A stretch of DNA of 64,000 nt from an uncultured Thermotogae bacterium (GCA_964614065.1 CAZTJJ010000001.1:9028-73027), one strand, 5' to 3'. Shown: positions 2,442 to 24,955, counted from the first letter of the stretch. The notes: a model not told the origin generated them from the sequence alone. Program-made: numbers and translations.

Positions 2442-4715
2442 TCAAAGTTCTTCTTCATAATCGCAGTTTTTGTTTGTGCAAACTAATTTGTCTCCTGAGT
2501 TAACGAGCACCCCCTGGCCGCACTTCGGACAGCTTTTGACGGGTTTATCACTTGTAGTAAATTTGCAATCGGGGTAGTTGCTGCAACCATAGAAGGTCTG
2601 TTTTTTCTTGCGTGAATACCGCTCGACTAGCTCTCCATCTGCACAATTCGGGCATTTTACACCTGTTGAAATAGAAGCCGTTTCATTACAATCGGGATTG
2701 GTGCACGCGTAAAATCTTCCATATCTCCCATGCTTTATTTCCATTTTCGAGTCACACTTTGGACATCTTTTTTCAGCCATGTTTTGTTCTTCTTGCTGTC
2801 GTTTTTTTAACTCGGCTTCGAGAATGACTTTGCCATCCTTGAACGTAAATGATATGTCTGGAGGCAGGCTCATTTTTTCTTCGCATTCTGGCCATGAAGA
2901 ACAGGACAAGTACGGTGAACCTTTCCAGTATCGGATATTCATGTGTTCCCCGCACTCTGGACAGCTCACGTCCGTGGGAATTTCAAACTCGTCTTCTCTG
3001 GAATCCAGGATTTCCTCTACTTTGTCCAGCTCTTTTTTTAGTGGGGCGTAGAATTTTGTTAAGGTCTTTTCTCTTGACGTTTTCCCATCTTTTATCTGAT
3101 CTAATGCCTCTTCCATTTTTGCAGTTAAACTTGGTTCCACTATTTCCGAAAAGAACTGCTCTAGGAATTCAACCACAACAAATCCCAACAAAGTGGGGAC
3201 AAACGAGCCTTTTCGCTTCACAATGTAGTCCCGCTTTTGGATTGTTGATATGATGCTAGCGTAGGTACTTGGCCTCCCTATGCCCTGTTTTTCCAATTCT
3301 TTAATTAAGCCCGCTTCAGTGTACCTATTTGGGGGCTTGGTGAAGTGTTGGCTAGGATCTATATTATCCAACTTCAAACTGTCGCCCTTCGAGAGATTTT
3401 TTGGCAGTTGGACGTCTTGGTCTTTTAACGGTTTGAGTTTAAGCACTTTTAGAAATCCATCGAAGACTAAACTGCTACCCGAGGTCTTGAACAGGTACTT
3501 ATTTGCCGTGACTTCGATTTTTTTTCGTTTATATCTAGCGTTACTCATCTGAGTTGCTACAAATCTGTCCCAGATTAACTTATAGAGCTTATATTGATCA
3601 TTAGATAAGTGACCTTTGAGATTAGAAGGCTGTCTACACACGCCTGTTGGTCGAATTGCCTCATGCGCATCTTGTGCGCCACTTTTTTTTCGGTAATATC
3701 TGGTTTTGTTGACCAGGTAGTCTGGGCCGAATCGGTCTTTAATGAAGCTCCTTAATTCACTGTTGGCTTCCTTGGCGACCCGAGTGGAATCTGTCCTCAT
3801 GTAGGTAATTAAACCCTCTATTCCTTTGTCCAGCTCCACGCCTTCGTAAAGTGTTTGTGCTATCCTCATTGTCTTCGTGGGGCTGAAATTGAGGATTGAA
3901 GAAGCAGTTCTCTGGAGGGTTGACGTGATGAAGGGCGGTAACGGTGATCGTGTTTTATCCTTTTCCGTGAGTTGTGATAGCTGGAATTTGGCCTGGTCGA
4001 GCTCTGATTTTATTTTATCTGCCTCTTCCCCATTGTTAATTTCAGGTTTCTGTCCACTGATTTTGTGTAGCTTGAGTGGGAATGAAGAGGAAGGCGACTC
4101 TTTGTATAAATCTACTCTTACCTTCCAATATTCCTCTGGTTCAAATTTCTCGCGTTTTTCCTCTCTGTCGACTATGTATTTCAGCCCTACTGATTGCACG
4201 CGGCCGGCGCTTAATCCTTCAAATCGACTTCCGGATATTGATTTCGATAACAAGGGGCTTATCAAATACCCAACTAACCTGTCGAGTATACGGCGGGCTC
4301 GTTGAGCTTCTACTTTTTCTAAGTCGATGTGTGTAGGTTCCTTAATTGCTTGCTTGATACTGTCTTGTGTGATCTCGTTAAAAATAATGCGTTTGAATTT
4401 TGCGTCTCCCTTCGAATTACCATTTGTGTTTAGCAATTCGTAGAGATCAAATGCTATTGCTTCTCCTTCTCTATCGTTATCTGTTGCTAGATATACTGTA
4501 TCTTTTTTGGTGGCTTCTTTTCGTAGTTTACCGATCAATTTCTTTTGGTTGACAACTAAGGTTGGCCTGAATCCGTTTTCTATCTCTACCCCGAGCTCTT
4601 TTTGGGGCAGGTCTCTTATGTGACCCTTTGAGGATAGTACTTTATAGGCAGAACCCAGGTACCTATTTATCGTATTTGCTTTGGTTGGTGATTCTACAAT
4701 AACTAGATTTTCCAT
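2442..4715 (-). CDS. topA: DNA topoisomerase I with C-terminal zinc-ribbon repeats.
   Basis: 757 aa. TOPRIM N-terminus 'VIVESPTKA', a Topo IA core, and several C4 zinc ribbons (CPECG...C, CPKCD...C, CPNC...C). Confidence 0.93.
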   Translation of the reverse strand: MENLVIVESPTKANTINRYLGSAYKVLSSKGHIRDLPQKELGVEIENGFRPTLVVNQKKLIGKLRKEATKKDTVYLATDNDREGEAIAFDLYELLNTNGNSKGDAKFKRIIFNEITQDSIKQAIKEPTHIDLEKVEAQRARRILDRLVGYLISPLLSKSISGSRFEGLSAGRVQSVGLKYIVDREEKREKFEPEEYWKVRVDLYKESPSSSFPLKLHKISGQKPEINNGEEADKIKSELDQAKFQLSQLTEKDKTRSPLPPFITSTLQRTASSILNFSPTKTMRIAQTLYEGVELDKGIEGLITYMRTDSTRVAKEANSELRSFIKDRFGPDYLVNKTRYYRKKSGAQDAHEAIRPTGVCRQPSNLKGHLSNDQYKLYKLIWDRFVATQMSNARYKRKKIEVTANKYLFKTSGSSLVFDGFLKVLKLKPLKDQDVQLPKNLSKGDSLKLDNIDPSQHFTKPPNRYTEAGLIKELEKQGIGRPSTYASIISTIQKRDYIVKRKGSFVPTLLGFVVVEFLEQFFSEIVEPSLTAKMEEALDQIKDGKTSREKTLTKFYAPLKKELDKVEEILDSREDEFEIPTDVSCPECGEHMNIRYWKGSPYLSCSSWPECEEKMSLPPDISFTFKDGKVILEAELKKRQQEEQNMAEKRCPKCDSKMEIKHGRYGRFYACTNPDCNETASISTGVKCPNCADGELVERYSRKKKQTFYGCSNYPDCKFTTSDKPVKSCPKCGQGVLVNSGDKLVCTNKNCDYEEEL

Positions 4716-16541: not shown

Positions 16542-18002
16542 TTATGGTTGGAGCACTAACCAGCGGTAAGTATTTCCTCTGAGTACCCTGATCAGCAGTG
16601 TTTCTCGTTTGCTGAGAGAGGAAGTTACGTTTTGCCAGTCACTTATATCCGTCAGTGGTTTGAGACTTACGCTATTTCTTCCAGCCTGCACTATCACGTC
16701 GCCTTCTTCAAGTTCTCTTGCAGGGCCAAATTTGTCAACGTCTTTTACCACAAGCCCTTTATTCGTTACTAAGTCGTATTTCTCCTTAGTCTCTATGGAG
16801 TTCTGGATCAAAGTAATACCGTATTTCTCATCAGTTAGCTCGTCTTTGTTGGGGGAGTCTACTTGTGTAGTTTCCTTTCTTTCACCAAGTTTCACCGTAG
16901 CTGTGTGCTCTTTTCCATCTCTAAGGAAAGTTAAAGTGATTTCTTCTCCTACTGATCGGTACATTATTTCTTGTTGAAACTGTGTATCGCTAGTTATAGT
17001 TTTCCCGTTTACTTCTGTGATTACGTCCCCTGCCTCAAGACCTGCTTTATCTGCTGGGTCGCCTTCCATTACTTCAGAGATTAGTACTCCTACTCCGGGT
17101 TCCACTTCAAATTTTTGCGCCATTGAAGGATTCAGTTCCTGAAAGACCACTCCTAGCCAGGCGCGAGTAACTTGACCTGTGCTTACTAACTCTCCAAGGA
17201 CCTGTTTGACTGAGTCTATAGATACTGCAAAATTCAATCCCGTTAGCGGTACCCCTTGCTGGCTTCTGCGGATAATAGCCGTATTGATGCCGATAACTTC
17301 TCCACTGGTGTTTACCAAAGGTCCGCCGGAGTTTCCAGGGTTGATTGCTGCATCTGTTTGTAGAAGGTCTTGGTAGCTTCCTTCGCCGCTAGGCTTGGGT
17401 ATTGTCCTATTTTTAGCACTTAGAACTCCGGCTGTGACAGTGTTCTCGAATCCTTCGGGATTGCCTATCGCGACTACCCAAGCACCAACTGGAGTATTCT
17501 CCGGATTTCCTAGTTCTATCGAGGGCAAATTTTGTGGGTTCTCTCCTTTTGTAATTTCAAGTACTGCAACATCGATCATTTCGTCCTTACCTATTACCTC
17601 TGCTTGATATGTTGTGCTGTCGCTAAACGTCAGCCTTATGTCCTCCGCTCCGGTGACGACGTGCTCATTGGTGAGTAAGTATTTCTTACCTTGCCAGGTA
17701 ATTATGAAACCCGATCCCAACGATTGTACTCTTTGTTCTTCTTGCCTGTCTGGGTTGCCAAAGAAGTATCTGAAGAACGGATCGTCAAAAAAGTTATAAG
17801 GGGACCGTTGTGCTACAGTCTTTGTCACTTCGACCCTTGCAACAGCTGGACCGGCTATTTCCGCTGCTCTGGTGATGGCAGTTTTCTGAGAACTTGCAAT
17901 GTTATTGGCATCAGCGGCTAATGCGGCCAAGCTGGTTGGCAATAAAAGTCCTAAAGTTAGCACTACCAGAAGTACAAAATGCAAACTCCGATTTTTGTTC
18001 AT
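16542..18002 (-). CDS. htrA: HtrA/DegP-family periplasmic serine protease with PDZ domains.
   Basis: Signal peptide; trypsin-like 'GNSGGPLVN'; two PDZ-like regions. Directly upstream of the RR-HK pair, as in a CssRS/CpxAR-htrA arrangement. Confidence 0.9.
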   Translation of the reverse strand: MNKNRSLHFVLLVVLTLGLLLPTSLAALAADANNIASSQKTAITRAAEIAGPAVARVEVTKTVAQRSPYNFFDDPFFRYFFGNPDRQEEQRVQSLGSGFIITWQGKKYLLTNEHVVTGAEDIRLTFSDSTTYQAEVIGKDEMIDVAVLEITKGENPQNLPSIELGNPENTPVGAWVVAIGNPEGFENTVTAGVLSAKNRTIPKPSGEGSYQDLLQTDAAINPGNSGGPLVNTSGEVIGINTAIIRRSQQGVPLTGLNFAVSIDSVKQVLGELVSTGQVTRAWLGVVFQELNPSMAQKFEVEPGVGVLISEVMEGDPADKAGLEAGDVITEVNGKTITSDTQFQQEIMYRSVGEEITLTFLRDGKEHTATVKLGERKETTQVDSPNKDELTDEKYGITLIQNSIETKEKYDLVTNKGLVVKDVDKFGPARELEEGDVIVQAGRNSVSLKPLTDISDWQNVTSSLSKRETLLIRVLRGNTYRWLVLQP

Positions 18003-18173
18003 TATATATCTCCTCCATAGTTAATTTGGTTAGAACTAAAGATCAAGTTCTCGTCTTTCTGATAATATCTTATTCCGGGAATATAAAGAAATTATGAAGA
18101 AGTTCTAAAGAAAATCAAGTTTCGGGATCGCCTGTAAATCGGTTAGAATCTTGTATTACCTGAGAATCATAGG

Positions 18174-20810
18174 TTAACTGAATCTCCCGAAGATCCTTTG
18201 TCCGATCTTGATATATATCCAGATAAAGATGGAGAAGATGGCAATTGCACTGAGAATTACAAACCAGGGATAAAGACCAAGTGGTACCAGACCAAAGTAT
18301 GTATTGATCGGGCTGTAAATTACCACAAACTGGAAAGTGATCGAGGACAAAACTGCCAAATGTAACCAGTAATTTGTCTTGATAGGCTTGCCAAAACTGG
18401 CTCTAATGGGGACTATTTCTATTAATTCAATTAAAACCAATTCCGTAAAGGCAACTGTCCTGGCCAGGGCTATATTTGGTAGCAGATGGTTAAACGAAAG
18501 GAGTATTAACCCTGTCAGACTCACACCTATACCCAGAATCACGAAAACCATGTATTTGTTAATGACACCCTCACTTTTTCTTCGGGGCTTTCTGTCCATT
18601 ACCCCTTTTGATTTTCCATCTGCTCCCAGCGCTACCGCAGGTAAGCCATCAGTTAACAGGTTAACCCATAACAACATTGGTGCTGTCAATGGTAGCCCTA
18701 GGCCAAACAAAGTGCCTAGAAACACAGTGAGGACTTCTGCCAGATTACCGGACAGGAGTAAAGAGACAAATTTTCTGATGTTATCGAATATAGCCCTTCC
18801 CTCGGCAATTGCGTCCTTAATCGAGGCAAAGTTATCGTCCAGTAGCACTATGTCAGAAGCTTGTTTGGCTACATCTGTTCCTCTAATCCCCATTGATATT
18901 CCAACGTCGGATCGCTTTAGAGAAGGGGCATCATTTACGCCATCACCTGTCATTGCAACTATGTGGCCTTCTTCGTCTTTTATGATGTTCAATATTTTTA
19001 ACTTGTCAGACGGTGATACCCGGGCAAACGTGGTTACCTCTGGCACTTTCTTTCTTAGTTTCAAATTTGTTAAAGAATTAAGGTCTTTTCCCGTTAAAAC
19101 CTCACCTGTAAACCCGAGTTCCTTGCCTATTGCTTTTGCGGTTAGCGCGTTGTCCCCGGTTACCATTACTGTTCTAATGCCGGCGGCGCGACAGGCGTGT
19201 ATTGCTTCTTTTACTTCTTCTCTTGGTGGATCTATCATGCCCTGGAGCCCGATGAAGGTGAGGTTAGTTTCTAGGTTAGTCTTGTCGATATCTTCTACGT
19301 TTTCGTCATAGAGATCTTTAGTGGCAAAGCCCAGTACCCGCAGCGCAGCAGAAGCCATACTCTCGATCTTTTGCTGAAATTCTTCTCTCTTTTCAATGGT
19401 AAGGGGTTTTATTTCCCCGTTTTCCCAGTAATTGTTGCTTTTTTCTAGCACTATTTCTGGTGCTCCCTTGGTGTAGGATCTTGTCGTCTCTTCATTTTTG
19501 TAGACAGTAGTCATCATTTTTCTCTTCGATGAGAACGGTATTTCTCTTATCCTGGTCATAGAACTATTCGTTTCGGTCAGGTTTAGACCGGCTCGTCTTG
19601 CCGATTTGAGGAGGGCAACTTCGGTTGGATCACCGATCATTTCATCGTGAGCTTGAAGCTCTGCATCGTTACATAAGACCCCAGACTGTAATAGCAGTTT
19701 TTGGTCGTTGCCTCTGTTATTTTTGCCAGAATCCTTTTCTAGAGATAATTCACCGATTTTTCCCTGAGTACCGGAAGTATAGACCTGTTGGACGCTCATC
19801 TCGTTTTCGGTAAGCGTTCCTGTCTTGTCGGTGCAAATAGTGTCGACGGATCCCAGTGATTCCACCGCAGTTAATCGTCTGGTTAGGGCATTGCGCTCCA
19901 CCATCTTCCTTGTTCCCATAGCTAGGGCGAGAGTTACAACCGCAGGCAGTCCTTCAGGAATTGCCGCCACTGCTAAAGCCACAGCGGTTAGAAAGGCTTC
20001 CAACCAACCTGTACCATGAAACCAAATTGAGATTGGTACTATCAATGCAGAGATTCCAATCAATAATATTCCTAACTTTTTGCCTAGTTCGTTTACTTCT
20101 TTTTGAAATGGAGTCAGTTCTTGCTCTACTTCCTGGAGTTGCTTGGCCACTTGTCCTATTTCAGTTTCCATGCCTGTGGATACTACGATTGCTTCCCCAC
20201 GCCCTCTGACTACGTTGGTGTGTTTAAATACCATGTTGGATTGTTCAGCTAGCTCGATTGATTCCTGTATAACGTCTGTTATCTTTTGAACAGCTTCGCT
20301 TTCTCCTGTAAGGGCGGATTCGTCAACCTTTAGAGTTTGTTGCTTGATTAGCCGGGCGTCGGCGGGCACAGTCGCACCCTGTTCTAGAGAGATGACATCT
20401 CCAGGAACCAACTCTTCGATATCAATGACTTTCCGCTGTCCGCCGCGGTATACAGTTGCCTCTGCTGTTGCCATCTCTTTCAATGCTTGAATTGACTGTT
20501 CTGCTTTCCAGTCCTGAACGAAGCCAAAGATCCCATTTCCAATAACAATTGCGATGATGAGATAGAAATCTACCTGGTGGCCGAGTATAAGTGAGATAGT
20601 TGCGGCAATCAGAAGGATGAGGATTAAAAAATCCGTGAACTGCTCAAGGAAGAGGGTTATTGGAGAGATTTTTTTCTCCTCTTTCAATTTATTCTTGCCG
20701 TATTTATCTATTTTTCCGGTTGCTTCATCTGATGATAATCCGGTTGAGCTGGAGTTTAATCTAGAGTAAACTTCGGAAAGCGGCAACTTGTGCCATTTTT
20801 CCTCGGGCAT
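18174..20810 (-). CDS. P-type cation-transporting ATPase, type II (Ca2+/Mn2+-like) with a PEGLP motif.
   Basis: 878 aa, 'DKTGTLT', 'TGDGVNDAPSLK', TM4 'PEGLPAVVT'. No CPx heavy-metal motif. Confidence 0.88.
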   Translation of the reverse strand: MPEEKWHKLPLSEVYSRLNSSSTGLSSDEATGKIDKYGKNKLKEEKKISPITLFLEQFTDFLILILLIAATISLILGHQVDFYLIIAIVIGNGIFGFVQDWKAEQSIQALKEMATAEATVYRGGQRKVIDIEELVPGDVISLEQGATVPADARLIKQQTLKVDESALTGESEAVQKITDVIQESIELAEQSNMVFKHTNVVRGRGEAIVVSTGMETEIGQVAKQLQEVEQELTPFQKEVNELGKKLGILLIGISALIVPISIWFHGTGWLEAFLTAVALAVAAIPEGLPAVVTLALAMGTRKMVERNALTRRLTAVESLGSVDTICTDKTGTLTENEMSVQQVYTSGTQGKIGELSLEKDSGKNNRGNDQKLLLQSGVLCNDAELQAHDEMIGDPTEVALLKSARRAGLNLTETNSSMTRIREIPFSSKRKMMTTVYKNEETTRSYTKGAPEIVLEKSNNYWENGEIKPLTIEKREEFQQKIESMASAALRVLGFATKDLYDENVEDIDKTNLETNLTFIGLQGMIDPPREEVKEAIHACRAAGIRTVMVTGDNALTAKAIGKELGFTGEVLTGKDLNSLTNLKLRKKVPEVTTFARVSPSDKLKILNIIKDEEGHIVAMTGDGVNDAPSLKRSDVGISMGIRGTDVAKQASDIVLLDDNFASIKDAIAEGRAIFDNIRKFVSLLLSGNLAEVLTVFLGTLFGLGLPLTAPMLLWVNLLTDGLPAVALGADGKSKGVMDRKPRRKSEGVINKYMVFVILGIGVSLTGLILLSFNHLLPNIALARTVAFTELVLIELIEIVPIRASFGKPIKTNYWLHLAVLSSITFQFVVIYSPINTYFGLVPLGLYPWFVILSAIAIFSIFIWIYIKIGQRIFGRFS

Positions 20811-20991
20811 TTGTACAATTCCCCCTCGAACCCTATAAGGTAAGTTAAAAGTTTTTGGTCTATCCTTTTGTTCTCATACAGATTAATATATGAGAACCTG
20901 TGGAACAACTTTGGTACACGACACGGTCTGCTGGAGCTCTAGTGGTATGGTTTTATCCGTTCGTGAGATAGTGGAAACGGGAGTAGGTTGG

Positions 20992-21723
20992 TTAGATCTT
21001 GAGGTTTATTTTCTTAATGGAGTTTCCGAAATTTCTGGTTCCGCCGCCTTGAGAGACTATTTCCATGACTTCTTTTGGGTTCATGACAATTGACCCAAAT
21101 AGATAGGAGATACCATGTTCTTGCAGGGTAGGAACAAATGGTGTTGACGGTCCAAGTAAAGCGGTCTTGCCCGACGCTAGACGTAATATATGATCGATTG
21201 TTTCATTAATTATAGTCGTGGAAGAGATTATCAATATATCGCAGGATGGAAGAAGAGAATTTATTGCCCAATCCGGGTAGGTTGTTTCATCTGATGAGGA
21301 CTCTCTTTCGAATATATAGAGTTCACTTGATCTCTCCCGAATAGGTTCGATCAGAGGTTCGAAATAACCCACCATACCGACCTTGTGGGTGGAGTTGATT
21401 CCTAGGGCTTCTAACGGTGACGCTATGTTGCTTTGAGTTCCTTGATTTGCTACCGCGTTTATGGTAGCAAGACCTATTCCAGCTTGCAGGGGATCGGGTT
21501 TGGTTAGAAGTTGGGCGGCTTTGTAGGCGTTTATTCCGATGTATTGACCTGCAGCTTCTAGCAGGCTACAGCCCCTGGGTAGATCATATCTTAACGTAGC
21601 GGCCAATCCGGTATTACCGGAGTCAAGTTGTATCGCAGTATAGCCTAAGCCGATTCTTAGATCGGATACTGACTGTCTTTGGAGTTCGGCTTTGTATTGG
21701 TTTACGAGTTGTTCCTTAATCAT
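20992..21723 (-). CDS. DUF4213/DUF364 protein (Rossmann-like 'putative heavy-metal chelation' family).
   Basis: 243 aa; family recognised from sequence. Overlaps the upstream feoC-like gene by 4 nt. Confidence 0.5.
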   Translation of the reverse strand: MIKEQLVNQYKAELQRQSVSDLRIGLGYTAIQLDSGNTGLAATLRYDLPRGCSLLEAAGQYIGINAYKAAQLLTKPDPLQAGIGLATINAVANQGTQSNIASPLEALGINSTHKVGMVGYFEPLIEPIRERSSELYIFERESSSDETTYPDWAINSLLPSCDILIISSTTIINETIDHILRLASGKTALLGPSTPFVPTLQEHGISYLFGSIVMNPKEVMEIVSQGGGTRNFGNSIKKINLKI

Positions 21724-21986
21724 GATTTGTAGGTTTCCTCATCCGTTTGTCTGTCTTCGGTTACCATGTAAAGTTTTTCCTGCCCGGGGGAAGGTAAAGG
21801 GCAAAAACTACTCATTGGGCAACTGTTGCATTTACGGTGTTTATCAAGTTCTTTCAGCTTTCCACGAGAGACAAGAGTTTCGATAATGGCCTGAATAGTT
21901 TGTTTCCTCATGTCGAGGATTGTTACAAGTTCGTCCACCGATTTTCCTCGCCCTATTTTGGTGATCAATTCGTCTTCTAGACTCAT
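21720..21986 (-). CDS. FeoC-like small winged-helix protein with a Cys cluster.
   Basis: 88 aa, HTH-like N-terminus, 'CNSCPMSSFC'; sits after the feoB fragment. Confidence 0.45.
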   Translation of the reverse strand: MSLEDELITKIGRGKSVDELVTILDMRKQTIQAIIETLVSRGKLKELDKHRKCNSCPMSSFCPLPSPGQEKLYMVTEDRQTDEETYKS

Positions 21987-22045
21987 GGGATTGTAAGCTC
22001 CGAAAATTTTGAGTCGGATTTATCTCTTCAGTGACAAATACTGCA

Positions 22046-22570
22046 TTAAAGATTTTCTATCCTTTTTTTTAACTCTTTGGTATCGGTTGGTGTTGCCTGT
22101 GTAACCTTATGGGCTAGCTCTGATATTCCTTTCCCGCTAATGGCAACGGTTGATACAACTGGCACCTGAAGAATTTCTTCTAACTTCTCTACATCAATTT
22201 TTATGTTGTGGCTCTCAGCGTCGTCCCACATATTCAGAGCAATTACCAAAGGGAATCCTTTCTCCATGATCTCGAATGCTAGATATAACCCTCGTTCGAT
22301 CTTTGTAGCATCCAGGATAGAAATGACGGTTGCGTCCGGATTGTTTGCTAGTAGATCTAAAGCAACCTGCTCGGCTTCGTCTTTTGGTTCTGTGGAAAAG
22401 GTCCCCGGTACGTCTATAATCTCGTACTCTTGGTCTTCAATAAAGGTATATCCTACGGTATAATCTACGGTCGTTCCCGGGTAGTTGGATTCAGTGATAT
22501 TTGCTCCTGTTAATCTGTTGAAGACGGCACTCTTTCCCACGTTTGGATGCCCCATTAGTAAAATTTTCAT
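22046..22570 (-). CDS. Stand-alone FeoB G-domain: a small GTPase with no GDI or membrane permease domain.
   Basis: 174 aa, 'ILLMGHPNVGKSAVFNRLTG' G1, 'TTVD' G2, 'DVPG' G3, 'NMWD' G4. Overlaps feoA by 4 nt. Confidence 0.8.
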   Translation of the reverse strand: MKILLMGHPNVGKSAVFNRLTGANITESNYPGTTVDYTVGYTFIEDQEYEIIDVPGTFSTEPKDEAEQVALDLLANNPDATVISILDATKIERGLYLAFEIMEKGFPLVIALNMWDDAESHNIKIDVEKLEEILQVPVVSTVAISGKGISELAHKVTQATPTDTKELKKRIENL

Positions 22571-22794
22571 TTTTTAACCTCTATGAAAATTTGTTGCGCC
22601 AGTCCAAAACCAAGCGAAGTTGTAGATTGATCTACCGTAATTACTACAGGCCCCTTTATGGGCTGTTTTGTATCCATTCGGATTAACTTTCCATCTCTTA
22701 TCCCCATACCACAAAGCTTGGGTTTGATATTTTCTCCCATACTATGGATGATACCCCGTTCACCATATTCTAATTCTGTCAGTTTTTTTAACAT
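22567..22794 (-). CDS. feoA: FeoA-family protein (SH3-like).
   Basis: 75 aa, typical FeoA size and 'G..G.I' pattern. Confidence 0.7.
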   Translation of the reverse strand: MLKKLTELEYGERGIIHSMGENIKPKLCGMGIRDGKLIRMDTKQPIKGPVVITVDQSTTSLGFGLAQQIFIEVKK

Positions 22795-23018
22795 TTATCG
22801 ATTTCTCTCACTCGAATTTTTTTTGCCATTCCTCTCCCCACGGTTATTAGGTTGCCATTGCTTTTGATAGTGACTGGGCCCGGGCCTTTTGAGGAGATAA
22901 CTTTAAAGTTTAGACCTTCGGTAATTCCCCGAAGAGCCAGCCTTTGATGTAGCTTTGTTCCCCCGGAGATGGAAATTATCCTGGCAGTTTGATCGTCTTT
23001 TAACTGTGAAAGATACAT
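22788..23018 (-). CDS. feoA: FeoA-family protein, second copy.
   Basis: 76 aa, FeoA-like; overlaps the first copy by 7 nt. Confidence 0.7.
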   Translation of the reverse strand: MYLSQLKDDQTARIISISGGTKLHQRLALRGITEGLNFKVISSKGPGPVTIKSNGNLITVGRGMAKKIRVREIDKC

Positions 23019-23023
23019 AGTGG

Positions 23024-23497
23024 TTAGGTGGTTACATCGTCGTGATAATTACCTCTGCAATCAAACGGGAGCTCGTTGTGTTTGCTATAGTAATCAAAAT
23101 GCTTGAGCCATTCCGCTTCTCGCTTGGGACAGTTCTCAATAAAGTCGATGAACTTGTTGAGCTGACCTACGGATTCCTGACTTAAATAATGTTCCAATTT
23201 GCACGCGTCCTTGTCGGCTTGTTCGCTCGAGACGTGAATTGTTTTAAGAAACTTCCGGATGTTTATATGAATTTTAGAAATACTTTTTGCAATCTCTTTC
23301 CCTCTTTCAGTGAGGGTTACACCTTTGTACTTTTTATAGTTGATGTATCCCTGCTTATTTAGCTTGTGAAACATTTCCGTTACAGAAGGAGGCTTGACAC
23401 CCAAATCCTGAGCTATTTCATTTGTATTGGCGTGTCCTCGTTTGTTGATAGAGTTATAAATAGTTTCTAAGTAATCTTCTAAACTTTTACTTGCCAT
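23024..23497 (-). CDS. DtxR/MntR-family metal-dependent transcriptional repressor.
   Basis: N-terminal 'SLEDYLETIY...NEIAQDLGVKPPSVTEMFHKL' wHTH plus a dimerisation helix. Confidence 0.8.
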   Translation of the reverse strand: MASKSLEDYLETIYNSINKRGHANTNEIAQDLGVKPPSVTEMFHKLNKQGYINYKKYKGVTLTERGKEIAKSISKIHINIRKFLKTIHVSSEQADKDACKLEHYLSQESVGQLNKFIDFIENCPKREAEWLKHFDYYSKHNELPFDCRGNYHDDVTT

Positions 23498-23745
23498 TGT
23501 TATTATTTAAGTATTTAGGGTAACCTAACTTTTGCTCTCTATTATAATAATGGTCTGTTAAAAAGTCAATACAGTTATGCGGTCAAAAGTGGACTATTTT
23601 ACTCCACATTTGTTACCATTATACGACTGGTTTCGTCGCCTGTCAACTGATCACAAGCATGGTAATTTTGTTCTATCCAGCTCTGTTGACCTATTGAGTT
23701 AAACTTGGAACGGGTACGATATCCGCTTGGTTTTTGGTTGAGAAG

Positions 23746-23837
23746 GAGTGCTGGACCAATTACCCGTCTTCAAATTCAGCCTTCTATTCCAATGTTTTTC
23801 TACAAGCCCCACCCCTTGGATTGGGGTAATTGACTTA
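23746..23837. repeat. Copy B of the ~90-bp intergenic repeat, in the divergent dtxR/hrcA promoter region.
   Basis: Aligns with 7016-7106 at about 85-90% identity and ends in GGGGTAATTGACT. Confidence 0.8.
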
Positions 23838-23872
23838 ACCTGGGGTAGATTGCGGAGCAATTTGTTGAACGG

Positions 23873-23901
23873 TTGAAATAGAGATTTTTGCCAGTTATGA
23901 T
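23873..23901 (+). promoter_or_regulatory. Putative sigma-A promoter of hrcA-grpE-dnaK-dnaJ (-35 TTGAAA, 17 nt, -10 TATGAT).
   Basis: Consensus-like hexamers with a 17-nt spacer immediately 5' of CIRCE. Confidence 0.5.
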
Positions 23902-23902
23902 T

Positions 23903-23929
23903 TTAGCAGTCTTGAGGTATGAGTGCTAA
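23903..23929 (+). promoter_or_regulatory. CIRCE operator upstream of hrcA.
   Basis: TTAGCAGTC-N9-GAGTGCTAA, one mismatch to consensus; ends 3 nt before the hrcA ATG. Confidence 0.85.
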
Positions 23930-23932
23930 TTT

Positions 23933-24955
23933 ATGAAAAACAGAAAAGAACTAATATTAAAAGAGATTGTTGATCATTACATTGATTCGGGGGAACCCGT
24001 TTCTTCTAAGGTATTGTTGGATAAATATGATCTTAGTTACTCCTCTGCCACTATAAGAAACGACATGCACGAGCTGGAAGAAGAAGGGTTCCTGAAAAAG
24101 CCATACACTTCGGGGGGACGAATTCCTACAGTCGAGGGCTATCGGTATTTCGTGAACTGGCTACTTGAGTTATCGGAGCTCTCCCACGAGGAACAGAAGG
24201 CGGTTGTAGAGGCATACGAATTTGAACATCAGAATACGGAGAGATTGCTCAGAAATACGGCATCATTGTTATCGAACATTACTGGCTATACTGGTTTCGT
24301 GCTAGGACCGAATTTGGAAGACCGCCAGGTGGCATTCTTCACACTGACTCAACTTGACAAGCATCATTTGTTGGCGATATTAGTTACAGATGTTGGCTTG
24401 GTGGAAAATCGAGTGATAAAGTCGAAGAAAGAAGTCGACGGAAAGCAATTAAACAAAATTGTGCCCATGCTCACCGACCGCCTTCAAGGTAAGAAGATCG
24501 AGGACTTAATGAAGTTAAAGGACGTTAGTCTCAATGAAGAGGGTTGGTACAATAAATTGACTCGAGATTCCTTCTTGTTTGTCAAAAAATTTATGCAGGA
24601 AAGAAGCTATCGAAGATTATACACTGAAGGTTTGTTAAACCTGATAAGCGAAGATCCTCACAATGACCAGGATGCCCGTCAACTGAAACAAGCACTGAAG
24701 TGGCTTGACGAGGAAACTTTGTCTAAGATGACAGAAAAATGCGACGAGGATAACAACGACATGAACGTGTTAGTCGGGATTGACGATGATTCACAGTTTT
24801 TGCCGTACAGCCTCATTACCAAAAACCTGGCAAACTGCTCTAGTTCCCTGGGAGTATTGGGTCCGATTGATATGGATTACAGTAAATCATTTTCGACCGT
24901 TCAGTATATCGGAAATAGATTGGATTCCTTGTTAACTGCCGGAAAAAGAAATTAA
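23933..24955 (+). CDS. hrcA: Heat-inducible transcription repressor HrcA.
   Basis: 340 aa, N-terminal wHTH; sits in an hrcA-grpE-dnaK-dnaJ operon preceded by CIRCE. Confidence 0.9.
   Translation: MKNRKELILKEIVDHYIDSGEPVSSKVLLDKYDLSYSSATIRNDMHELEEEGFLKKPYTSGGRIPTVEGYRYFVNWLLELSELSHEEQKAVVEAYEFEHQNTERLLRNTASLLSNITGYTGFVLGPNLEDRQVAFFTLTQLDKHHLLAILVTDVGLVENRVIKSKKEVDGKQLNKIVPMLTDRLQGKKIEDLMKLKDVSLNEEGWYNKLTRDSFLFVKKFMQERSYRRLYTEGLLNLISEDPHNDQDARQLKQALKWLDEETLSKMTEKCDEDNNDMNVLVGIDDDSQFLPYSLITKNLANCSSSLGVLGPIDMDYSKSFSTVQYIGNRLDSLLTAGKRN

Follow-up and report, generated by a model that had tools for sequence, protein, structure and literature searches.

The 64-kb stretch of DNA analysed here (GCA_964614065.1 CAZTJJ010000001.1:9028-73027, read on one strand; hereafter the window) comes from an uncultured Thermotogae bacterium. 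On its minus strand, at 18174-23497, it carries a feo gene cluster from which the gene for the FeoB membrane permease is missing. Domains were assigned with Pfam and NCBIfam profiles, structural relatives were identified by matches to Protein Data Bank (PDB) entries, and riboswitches were searched with Rfam. The original prediction, made from the sequence alone, had named seven minus-strand open reading frames (ORFs) in the order DtxR/MntR-family repressor, two FeoA proteins, a stand-alone FeoB G-domain, a FeoC-like protein, a DUF4213/DUF364 protein and a P-type ATPase. Pfam recovered all seven where they had been placed, the FeoC call falling just under its threshold (Table 1). Most junctions had been described as overlapping by 4-7 nt. 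The sizes proved correct, but only three of the six junctions overlap (FeoA/FeoA by 7 nt, FeoA/G-domain and FeoC/DUF364 by 4 nt each). The others are gaps of 5 nt (DtxR to FeoA 1), 59 nt (G-domain to FeoC) and 181 nt (DUF364 to ATPase).

Table 1. Genes and regulatory features of the feo locus in the window
Feature	Position	Strand	Evidence and remarks
DtxR/MntR-family metalloregulator, 157 aa	23024-23497	-	Pfam Fe_dep_repress 9.9e-22 and Fe_dep_repr_C 1.1e-16; first gene of the operon
FeoA 1, 76 aa	22788-23018	-	Pfam FeoA 3.7e-15
FeoA 2, 75 aa	22567-22794	-	Pfam FeoA 2.6e-14
FeoB G-domain, separate polypeptide, 174 aa	22046-22570	-	FeoB_N 2.6e-50; GTPase half of a split, compact FeoB
Spacer, 59 nt, deletion scar	21987-22045	-	permease (409 aa) and ~150-aa membrane ORF sit here in L008, L010 and L014
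FeoC-like winged-helix protein, 88 aa	21720-21986	-	FeoC 4.2e-4, 20.8 bits against a gathering score of 21; C-x2-C-x5-C tail
DUF4213/DUF364 protein, 243 aa	20992-21723	-	DUF4213 5e-17, DUF364 2.5e-38
Type II P-type ATPase, Ca2+-pump-like, 878 aa	18174-20810	-	Pfam domains, motifs, LMCA1 match
Sigma-70-type promoter TTGACT-17-TATAAT	23541-23569	-	upstream of dtxR; 11 of 12 consensus positions matched
DtxR-type operator palindrome TTAGG-N4-CCTAA (putative)	23515-23528	.	18-31 nt before the dtxR start, just past the -10 box

Both FeoA ORFs matched PF04023 (56.2 and 53.5 bits; gathering score 23). The 174-aa ORF matched FeoB_N (PF02421) with 170 bits over practically the whole model (positions 2-155 of 156), and its motifs are legible as GHPNVGKS (G1), PGTT (G2), DVPG (G3) and NMWD (G4), confirming the stand-alone G-domain with intact G1-G4 that had been proposed. 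Pfam found neither Gate nor FeoB_C in this ORF, and the NCBIfam feoB model TIGR00437 (594 positions) was matched at positions 1-166 only. A tblastn search of the 64 kb with two split-FeoB permeases and the ORFs downstream of them detected no permease (best E = 0.11), in agreement with the predicted absence of the FeoB permease from the locus.

The window is a metagenome-derived contig, and an assembly or binning artefact could have removed the permease. However, a G-domain protein identical to that of the window, followed by the FeoC-like gene, was present on three independent JGI metagenome contigs, and diverged copies of the permease-less arrangement were present in Logan and ENA assemblies. 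As the junction recurs in three JGI, two Logan and one ENA assemblies, we consider an artefact excluded for practical purposes.

The compact FeoB family

We surveyed the family by scanning species-representative genomes and JGI metagenomes, and the returned loci were annotated by tblastn. Counts of permease loci refer to the 107 loci with enough upstream sequence. More than 1000 G-domain homologues were found; the best 120 were all ~170-185 aa long and came from Bipolaricaulota (Acetothermia), Thermoplasmata and Omnitrophota. NCBI names these homologues 'FeoB small GTPase domain-containing protein'. In locus L004 (G-domain 70% identical to that of the window) and in the archaeal locus L006 (65%), the gene order is feoA-feoA-G (174 aa)-permease (409 aa)-small ORF-FeoC-like, and the permease has the domain order Gate/FeoB_C/Gate. 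In 106 of the 107 permease loci the permease gene is immediately preceded by the G gene; a stop codon separates the two in 95 of these 106 loci, and they are fused in 11. A search of the genome collection with a chimeric query, the window G-domain joined to the L008 permease, returned 51 loci with G and permease adjacent in all of them (neither the window contig nor the contig of the L068 permease, described below, was among them).

The original prediction had also noted that the GDI domain is absent. This was borne out and applies to the whole subfamily, which has no GDI/helical domain: the G protein stops at residue 174, G-domain and membrane protein together amount to 583 aa in relatives, and fused homologues in Halobacteria measure 588-629 aa. 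On the basis of sequence, we conclude that the family is a compact form of FeoB that lacks this domain and is usually made as two polypeptides.

These data bear on two further points of the original prediction. It had allowed for the 174-aa ORF being a truncation or frameshift of a full-length feoB, which we reject, as 174 aa is the family norm and the downstream sequence holds no permease remnant. It had also proposed that the FeoA/G-domain/FeoC module is functionally uncoupled from its channel. In a family that is naturally split, moving one gene elsewhere alters no protein, so that uncoupling no longer follows from the gene arrangement.

Fused compact FeoB proteins were found in Halobacteria and some Desulfobacterota (P0172-P0218; L023, L025, L026, L028, L039), and split ones in most other groups. 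Split and fused forms occur within one orthologous family, which has therefore undergone repeated fusion or fission.

A predicted membrane protein of ~146-165 aa, belonging to no Pfam family, is encoded immediately 3' of the FeoB membrane gene in archaeal and bacterial loci (L008:11757-12227, L010:11757-12206, L004:11758-12198, L006:11765-12262, L068:5231-5671). An ORF of this kind (~150 aa) lies downstream of the permease in all 93 loci in which its presence could be tested. It was lost with the permease in the window and retained with the permease in L068. We regard it as a candidate for an unrecognised Feo subunit, possibly a fifth Feo component.

Loss of the permease gene and selection on the remaining genes

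The loci L010 and L011 (G-domain 71% identical) are syntenic gene for gene with the window but hold the permease and orf149 in addition (sufC-sufB-dtxR-feoA-feoA-G-permease-orf149-FeoC-like-DUF364-ATPase-HtrA-response regulator-kinase). The permease also follows the G gene immediately in L008 (81% G identity), L014 (83%) and L138 (86%). The order G-short spacer-FeoC-like, with no permease, was found in the window, in L012/L013 (94%) and in L137 (89%), and the junction at 21987-22045 is common to L012 and L137. In a tree of G-domains the permease-less lineages form one clade with a bootstrap value of 80 (94 when the intact L138 is added). Because the syntenic L010/L011 and the close relatives retain both genes, we conclude from this comparison that the window clade, with its three lineages, lost the permease and orf150 from an otherwise conserved operon. 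In the neighbourhood analysis proposed with the original prediction, DUF364 and the ATPase proved to be old neighbours of the complete system, the ATPase a conserved and DUF364 a variable one, and the permease-less lineages made up one clade.

The ancestral operon in Bipolaricaulota would have been sufC-sufB-dtxR-feoA-feoA-feoB(G, 174 aa)-feoB(membrane, 409 aa)-orf150-feoC-like-(DUF364)-ATPase. Deletion of the membrane gene and orf150 would then have left the window clade with the cytoplasmic half of a split compact Feo.

We estimated the ratio of nonsynonymous to synonymous substitution rates (dN/dS) between the window and L012, whose synonymous divergence (dS) is about 0.6-0.7, with DnaK and HrcA as comparison genes. 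The ratio was 0.017 for FeoA 1, 0.028 for FeoA 2, 0.041 for the G-domain, 0.064 for DtxR, 0.138 for DUF364 and 0.244 for the FeoC-like gene, and 0.052 and 0.049 for DnaK and HrcA, respectively. (The first feoA of L012 is intact, though missed by the gene caller.) The G-domain of the intact pair L008-L022 gave 0.045. Between the window and L137, synonymous sites are saturated (proportion of synonymous differences, pS, 0.75), and dN is 0.066. The distance of the G-domain to the outgroup L010 is 0.18-0.19, equal in orphan and intact lineages. Because purifying selection matches that in intact operons, with no increase in rate, the free G-domain and FeoA have stayed under unchanged constraint long after the deletion, presumably in an unchanged job. 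Only four substitutions are fixed in the permease-less clade relative to its four nearest intact relatives (K120S, L127V, R131E and G135Q). They sit within 16 residues (120-135) between G4 and G5, and two of them revert to a residue common elsewhere.

The same data speak to the idea that the locus is a decaying Feo remnant whose genes are becoming pseudogenes after loss of the permease. The deletion itself and the faster evolution of the FeoC-like gene would suit such a process, but three lineages with saturated synonymous divergence have every ORF intact, FeoA and the G-domain have dN/dS values of 0.02-0.04 like those of DnaK and of intact operons, and promoter and operator are conserved (see below). 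We consider decay very improbable.

It is also conceivable that the organism has no Feo permease, and that FeoA, G-domain and FeoC work independently of a channel, for instance by sensing or chaperoning iron in a GTP-dependent manner together with DUF364, or by regulating the ATPase. The 64-kb window indeed holds no permease, the permease-less arrangement has been kept in three lineages under strong purifying selection, DUF364 has been kept, in overlap with the FeoC-like gene, the position of the ATPase beside the operon is conserved, and the link to the orphan permease locus described below is compositional only. A similar partnership with DUF364 or the ATPase had been put forward in the original prediction. 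It loses its footing because both genes adjoin the complete operon in L010/L011, which makes their adjacency ancestral; DUF364 is, moreover, often absent from complete operons. The ATPase keeps the motifs of a Ca2+ pump, is most like Listeria LMCA1 and has no DtxR box in front of it. A change of partner would also predict something other than a G-domain with an unchanged rate and four clade-specific substitutions, and an orphan permease locus of matching composition does exist. We therefore regard a channel-independent module as unlikely, though not negligible.

The orphan permease locus L068

Of the 107 permease loci, L068 (JGI contig Ga0102934_1004978, 8.8 kb) alone has neither feoA nor G. 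Its order is dtxR2 (169 aa, 33% identical to the window DtxR), 11 nt, permease (409 aa), orf146. In composition it resembles the window clade. The G+C content (GC) is 0.449 for L068, 0.441 for the window and 0.452 for L012, and 0.47-0.55 for other Bipolaricaulota loci. At third codon positions (GC3) the L068 permease gene has 0.45, the window genes 0.42-0.44 and other permease genes 0.56-0.80. The tetranucleotide correlation between L068 and the window (0.948) is the highest of all loci, followed by L012 and L013 (0.91). It lies at the level reached by 7.5-kb pieces of the window itself (0.925-0.96), and the L068 flanks alone give 0.934.

The two loci also co-occur. L068 comes from JGI sample Ga0102934, and the window population is present in Ga0102935 and Ga0102938 of the same sample series. 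Proteins of L068 and of the window have the same source pattern (NCBI, JGI and ENA), their largest contigs measuring 22,634 and 96,595 nt, respectively. The 208-aa gene beside dtxR2 in L068 has a close variant in run SRR6056297, which also contains the window G protein. Variants found only in Logan run in parallel, with an L068-type permease 95% identical and a G-domain 94% identical (L012). Among the inspectable clusters of Bipolaricaulota-type permeases in a database of 5.8 billion proteins, no orphan permease was found apart from the L068 cluster. The original prediction had foreseen that a separate feoB membrane gene might lie elsewhere in the genome and would speak against it. Judged by composition and co-occurrence, L068 probably is this gene.

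L068 appears to belong to another operon lineage than the window. When the first 214 residues are compared, the L068 permease falls with that of L130 (91% identity, bootstrap 97) and not with the L008 and L014 permeases, the expected vertical partners of the window G-domain. For DtxR2 of L068, identity is 68% to the L130 regulator and at most 40% to any other. L130 has the order dtxR2-feoA-feoA-G-permease and belongs to a very different genome (GC 0.54, GC3 0.80). Upstream of dtxR2, L068 carries a TTGACA-17-TATAAT promoter and the perfect palindrome GTTAGA-TAGG-TCTAAC (3400-3480), and a similar palindrome, GTTAGATAAAGCTAAC, lies between dtxR2 and feoA in L130 (L130:830-960). The dtxR2 paralogues are 33-38% identical to the window DtxR, and these sequences suggest that two DtxR/operator pairs control Feo genes in Bipolaricaulota. 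We also tested co-residence of the two operon types by tetranucleotide composition (L130 against type-1 loci), which did not discriminate. The second operon may have been acquired by transfer or may be an old paralogue.

Taken together, we think it likely that Feo in the window lineage is encoded in trans, at two loci of one genome that arose by complementary deletions. On the simplest reading, two operon lineages would once have been present together. In the window-type operon the membrane gene and orf150 were deleted, and the L130-type operon would have lost feoA-feoA-G, leaving dtxR2-membrane-orf146 as in L068, a copy that would since have adapted fully to the composition of its host. That the G half and the pore half come from different operon lineages, each with its own DtxR paralogue and operator, is a part of this proposal that we favour only slightly over its negation. 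Under metal scarcity, DtxR would leave TTAGG-N4-CCTAA, and feoA, feoA, the G-domain, feoC-like and DUF364 would be made, while DtxR2 would separately derepress the permease locus through GTTAGA-N4-TCTAAC. The free G-domain and FeoA would dock on the permease, and GTP binding and hydrolysis would gate the entry of Fe2+ (or Mn2+) as in an ordinary FeoB. The ATPase would stand apart from Feo as a Ca2+-type pump with its own 181-nt upstream region.

Several observations weigh against Feo in trans. The link between the window and L068 is one of composition and co-occurrence only. The L068 permease lacks the 'SRC' source tag that the window G protein carries, and L068 could belong to a close relative of similar composition. 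Furthermore, the L068 permease and the window G-domain fall into different clades and are not vertical partners; the permease would need to work with a G-domain ~71% identical to its original partner, and the window G-domain showed no convergence towards the L130-type G.

If L068 came from another organism, the membrane partner could be a canonical full-length FeoB or some other transporter encoded elsewhere. The genome is represented here by 64 kb, and in Helicobacter pylori feoA and feoB lie at separate chromosomal sites and still cooperate (PMC10353542). A full-length FeoB, however, brings its own G-domain and would leave the selection on the free one unexplained. In addition, the G gene is missing from none of the 107 permease loci but L068, and the inspected protein-database clusters contained no further orphan permease of the compact type. 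We consider such a partner quite unlikely and retain L068 as the probable source of the pore.

The arrangement differs from that of H. pylori, where feoA is apart from an intact full-length feoB; here the break runs inside FeoB, between GTPase and pore. With canonical FeoABC of Escherichia coli and Vibrio it shares the SH3-like FeoA, the G-domain with G1-G5, the Gate/FeoB_C/Gate permease, a putative small winged-helix FeoC-like protein with a Cys motif and predicted metal-dependent repression. Unlike the canonical system, it has a compact FeoB (174 + 409 aa) in two polypeptides and without the GDI/helical domain, two FeoA genes, an extra conserved ~150-aa membrane protein and a repressor of the DtxR family rather than Fur, and in the window lineage the FeoB halves presumably act in trans from different loci. 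The closest relative is the split compact operon of Bipolaricaulota and anaerobic archaea (L010, L008, L004, L006), with orthologous genes in the same synteny, including the dtxR promoter/operator, FeoC-like, DUF364 and the ATPase neighbour. Missing from the window clade, by comparison, are the permease gene, orf150 and the sufC-sufB pair upstream, and the permease presumed for this clade stems from the L130-type lineage. By its FeoA, its G-domain and, presumably in trans, its permease, the system is a member of the Feo family, a known system that is unusually scattered. What is probably new is the distribution of G half and pore half over two loci through complementary deletions.

There is continuing debate over the way in which the FeoB GTPase domain governs the iron pore. 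To our knowledge, nearly all work on FeoB has so far used full-length or FeoA-fused proteins. Papers on the evolution and architecture of Feo treat FeoA-FeoB fusions, the separate feoA and feoB of Helicobacter and the distribution of FeoC; FeoB fission goes unmentioned in them, and our literature search returned nothing specific on split FeoB or on FeoB with DUF364. The widespread natural fission of FeoB offers a natural system for tests of G/pore coupling. The window lineage would be of special use, with its halves at different loci and seemingly from different operons; if they do derive from different lineages, halves of split FeoB would be interchangeable. Were the module channel-independent after all, it would be a long-kept soluble GTPase module under DtxR control, for instance for iron sensing or hand-over with the DUF364 enzyme. 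There is also a caveat for annotation: where genome-based calls of iron uptake presuppose a feoB that is full-length or adjacent, such an organism would be counted as lacking Feo, or its G gene would be taken for a pseudogene.

Regulation and neighbouring genes

The window DtxR has an N-terminal helix-turn-helix domain (PF01325, 77 bits) and a metal-binding/dimerisation domain (PF02742, 61 bits). It is a two-domain protein without the SH3-like C-terminal domain. With 119 bits it stays under the cut-off of the NCBIfam MntR model (138), and neither the MntR nor the DtxR equivalog cut-off was reached. Read by eye against the residue numbering of Bacillus subtilis MntR and of DtxR, its ligand positions look mixed, presumably with N-terminal Asp and Glu as in MntR and a Cys at the position of DtxR Cys102.

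With at most one mismatch allowed, TTAGG-N4-CCTAA matched the window at this one site, a number that 64 kb could yield by chance. All 21 related Bipolaricaulota loci that have dtxR upstream of feo, however, carry the palindrome too, again placed after the TATAAT box and before the dtxR start. Because this position is kept in 21 of 21 loci, its footprint is a putative autoregulated DtxR operator. The predicted control of the module by a DtxR-family protein is supported by this arrangement of TATAAT box and palindrome. The proposed search for a DtxR box succeeded at the dtxR/feoA operon and detected none upstream of the ATPase. The type-2 operator motif GTTAG-N6-CTAAC matched in the window at the same dtxR site and at one further, chance-level position, and nowhere else. 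No riboswitch was found with Rfam in 17900-24000. A second minus-strand promoter, TTGACA-17-TATAAT (12/12), lies at 23618-23646, ~75 nt upstream of the operator-linked one, and may be a second, unregulated promoter of the operon or a chance match.

In intact Bipolaricaulota loci sufC-sufB, genes for Fe-S cluster assembly, stands immediately upstream of dtxR (L008:6887-8954, L010:6736-8803). These genes were missing from this position in the window (23498-23932) and in L012/L013, and were absent across the 64 kb; in the window clade they must be sited elsewhere or have been lost.

The FeoC-like gene is the orthologue of the last gene of intact operons and 41% identical to the FeoC-like genes of L004 and L006. 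Its match to PF09012 is weak (Table 1), with the C-x2-C-x5-C motif conserved. Most Bipolaricaulota FeoC-like proteins have four Cys (C-x3-C-x2-C-x5-C), against three in the window clade and also in L008, L009 and several archaeal copies. The Cys that these lack is the first one, which is therefore variable or dispensable; losing it does not set the permease-less clade apart.

The DUF364 protein combines an enolase-N-like and a Rossmann-like domain (DUF4213, PF13938, 62 bits; DUF364, PF04016, 131 bits), and its structural matches are PDB 3l5o and 3npg, solved structures of unassigned function. As an accessory gene of the operon it varies: some intact relatives have it and many do not. What can be detected of DUF364 in L018 is an apparent remnant of its last ~66 residues (L018:3777-3974), lying after the FeoC-like gene and before the ATPase; the gene is thus being lost in some lineages. 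One DUF364 member sits in a molybdate-uptake operon of Methanococcus, and the only characterised member cyclises methylated S-adenosylmethionine to an azetidine amino acid (PMC12930334). The window protein might conceivably help to make or handle a small metal ligand.

The ATPase was correctly predicted to be of the PEGLP type without a CPx motif, as its PEGLP, DKTGT, TGDN and GDGVNDAP motifs can be read in the sequence. It has the features of a type II Ca2+ pump, a ten-helix architecture with Cation_ATPase_N and Cation_ATPase_C (Pfam). The best PDB match was the Listeria monocytogenes Ca2+-ATPase LMCA1 (PDB 6zhf; 603 bits, aligned end to end), which shares all four motifs, followed by SPCA and SERCA pumps. 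Of the NCBIfam models, TIGR01517 scored 523 against a cut-off of 507; TIGR01522 and TIGR01116 scored higher, yet under their own cut-offs. The SERCA-like residues Asn/Glu in M5 and Asn/Thr/Asp in M6 are present as well and belong to the likeness to LMCA1. The window ATPase differs from LMCA1 in adjoining a feo operon, and its transport specificity is a prediction from sequence. In nearly all Bipolaricaulota loci the feo operon is followed by this ATPase gene, most permease-bearing relatives included. We read it as a conserved neighbour outside the Feo module, most plausibly a pump of the Ca2+ type (possibly Ca2+/Mn2+).

In the Bipolaricaulota locus L009 (L009:9235-9939) the regulator is fused to FeoA in a 234-aa protein (Fe_dep_repress + Fe_dep_repr_C + FeoA), and this fused FeoA is the only FeoA domain ahead of the G gene.

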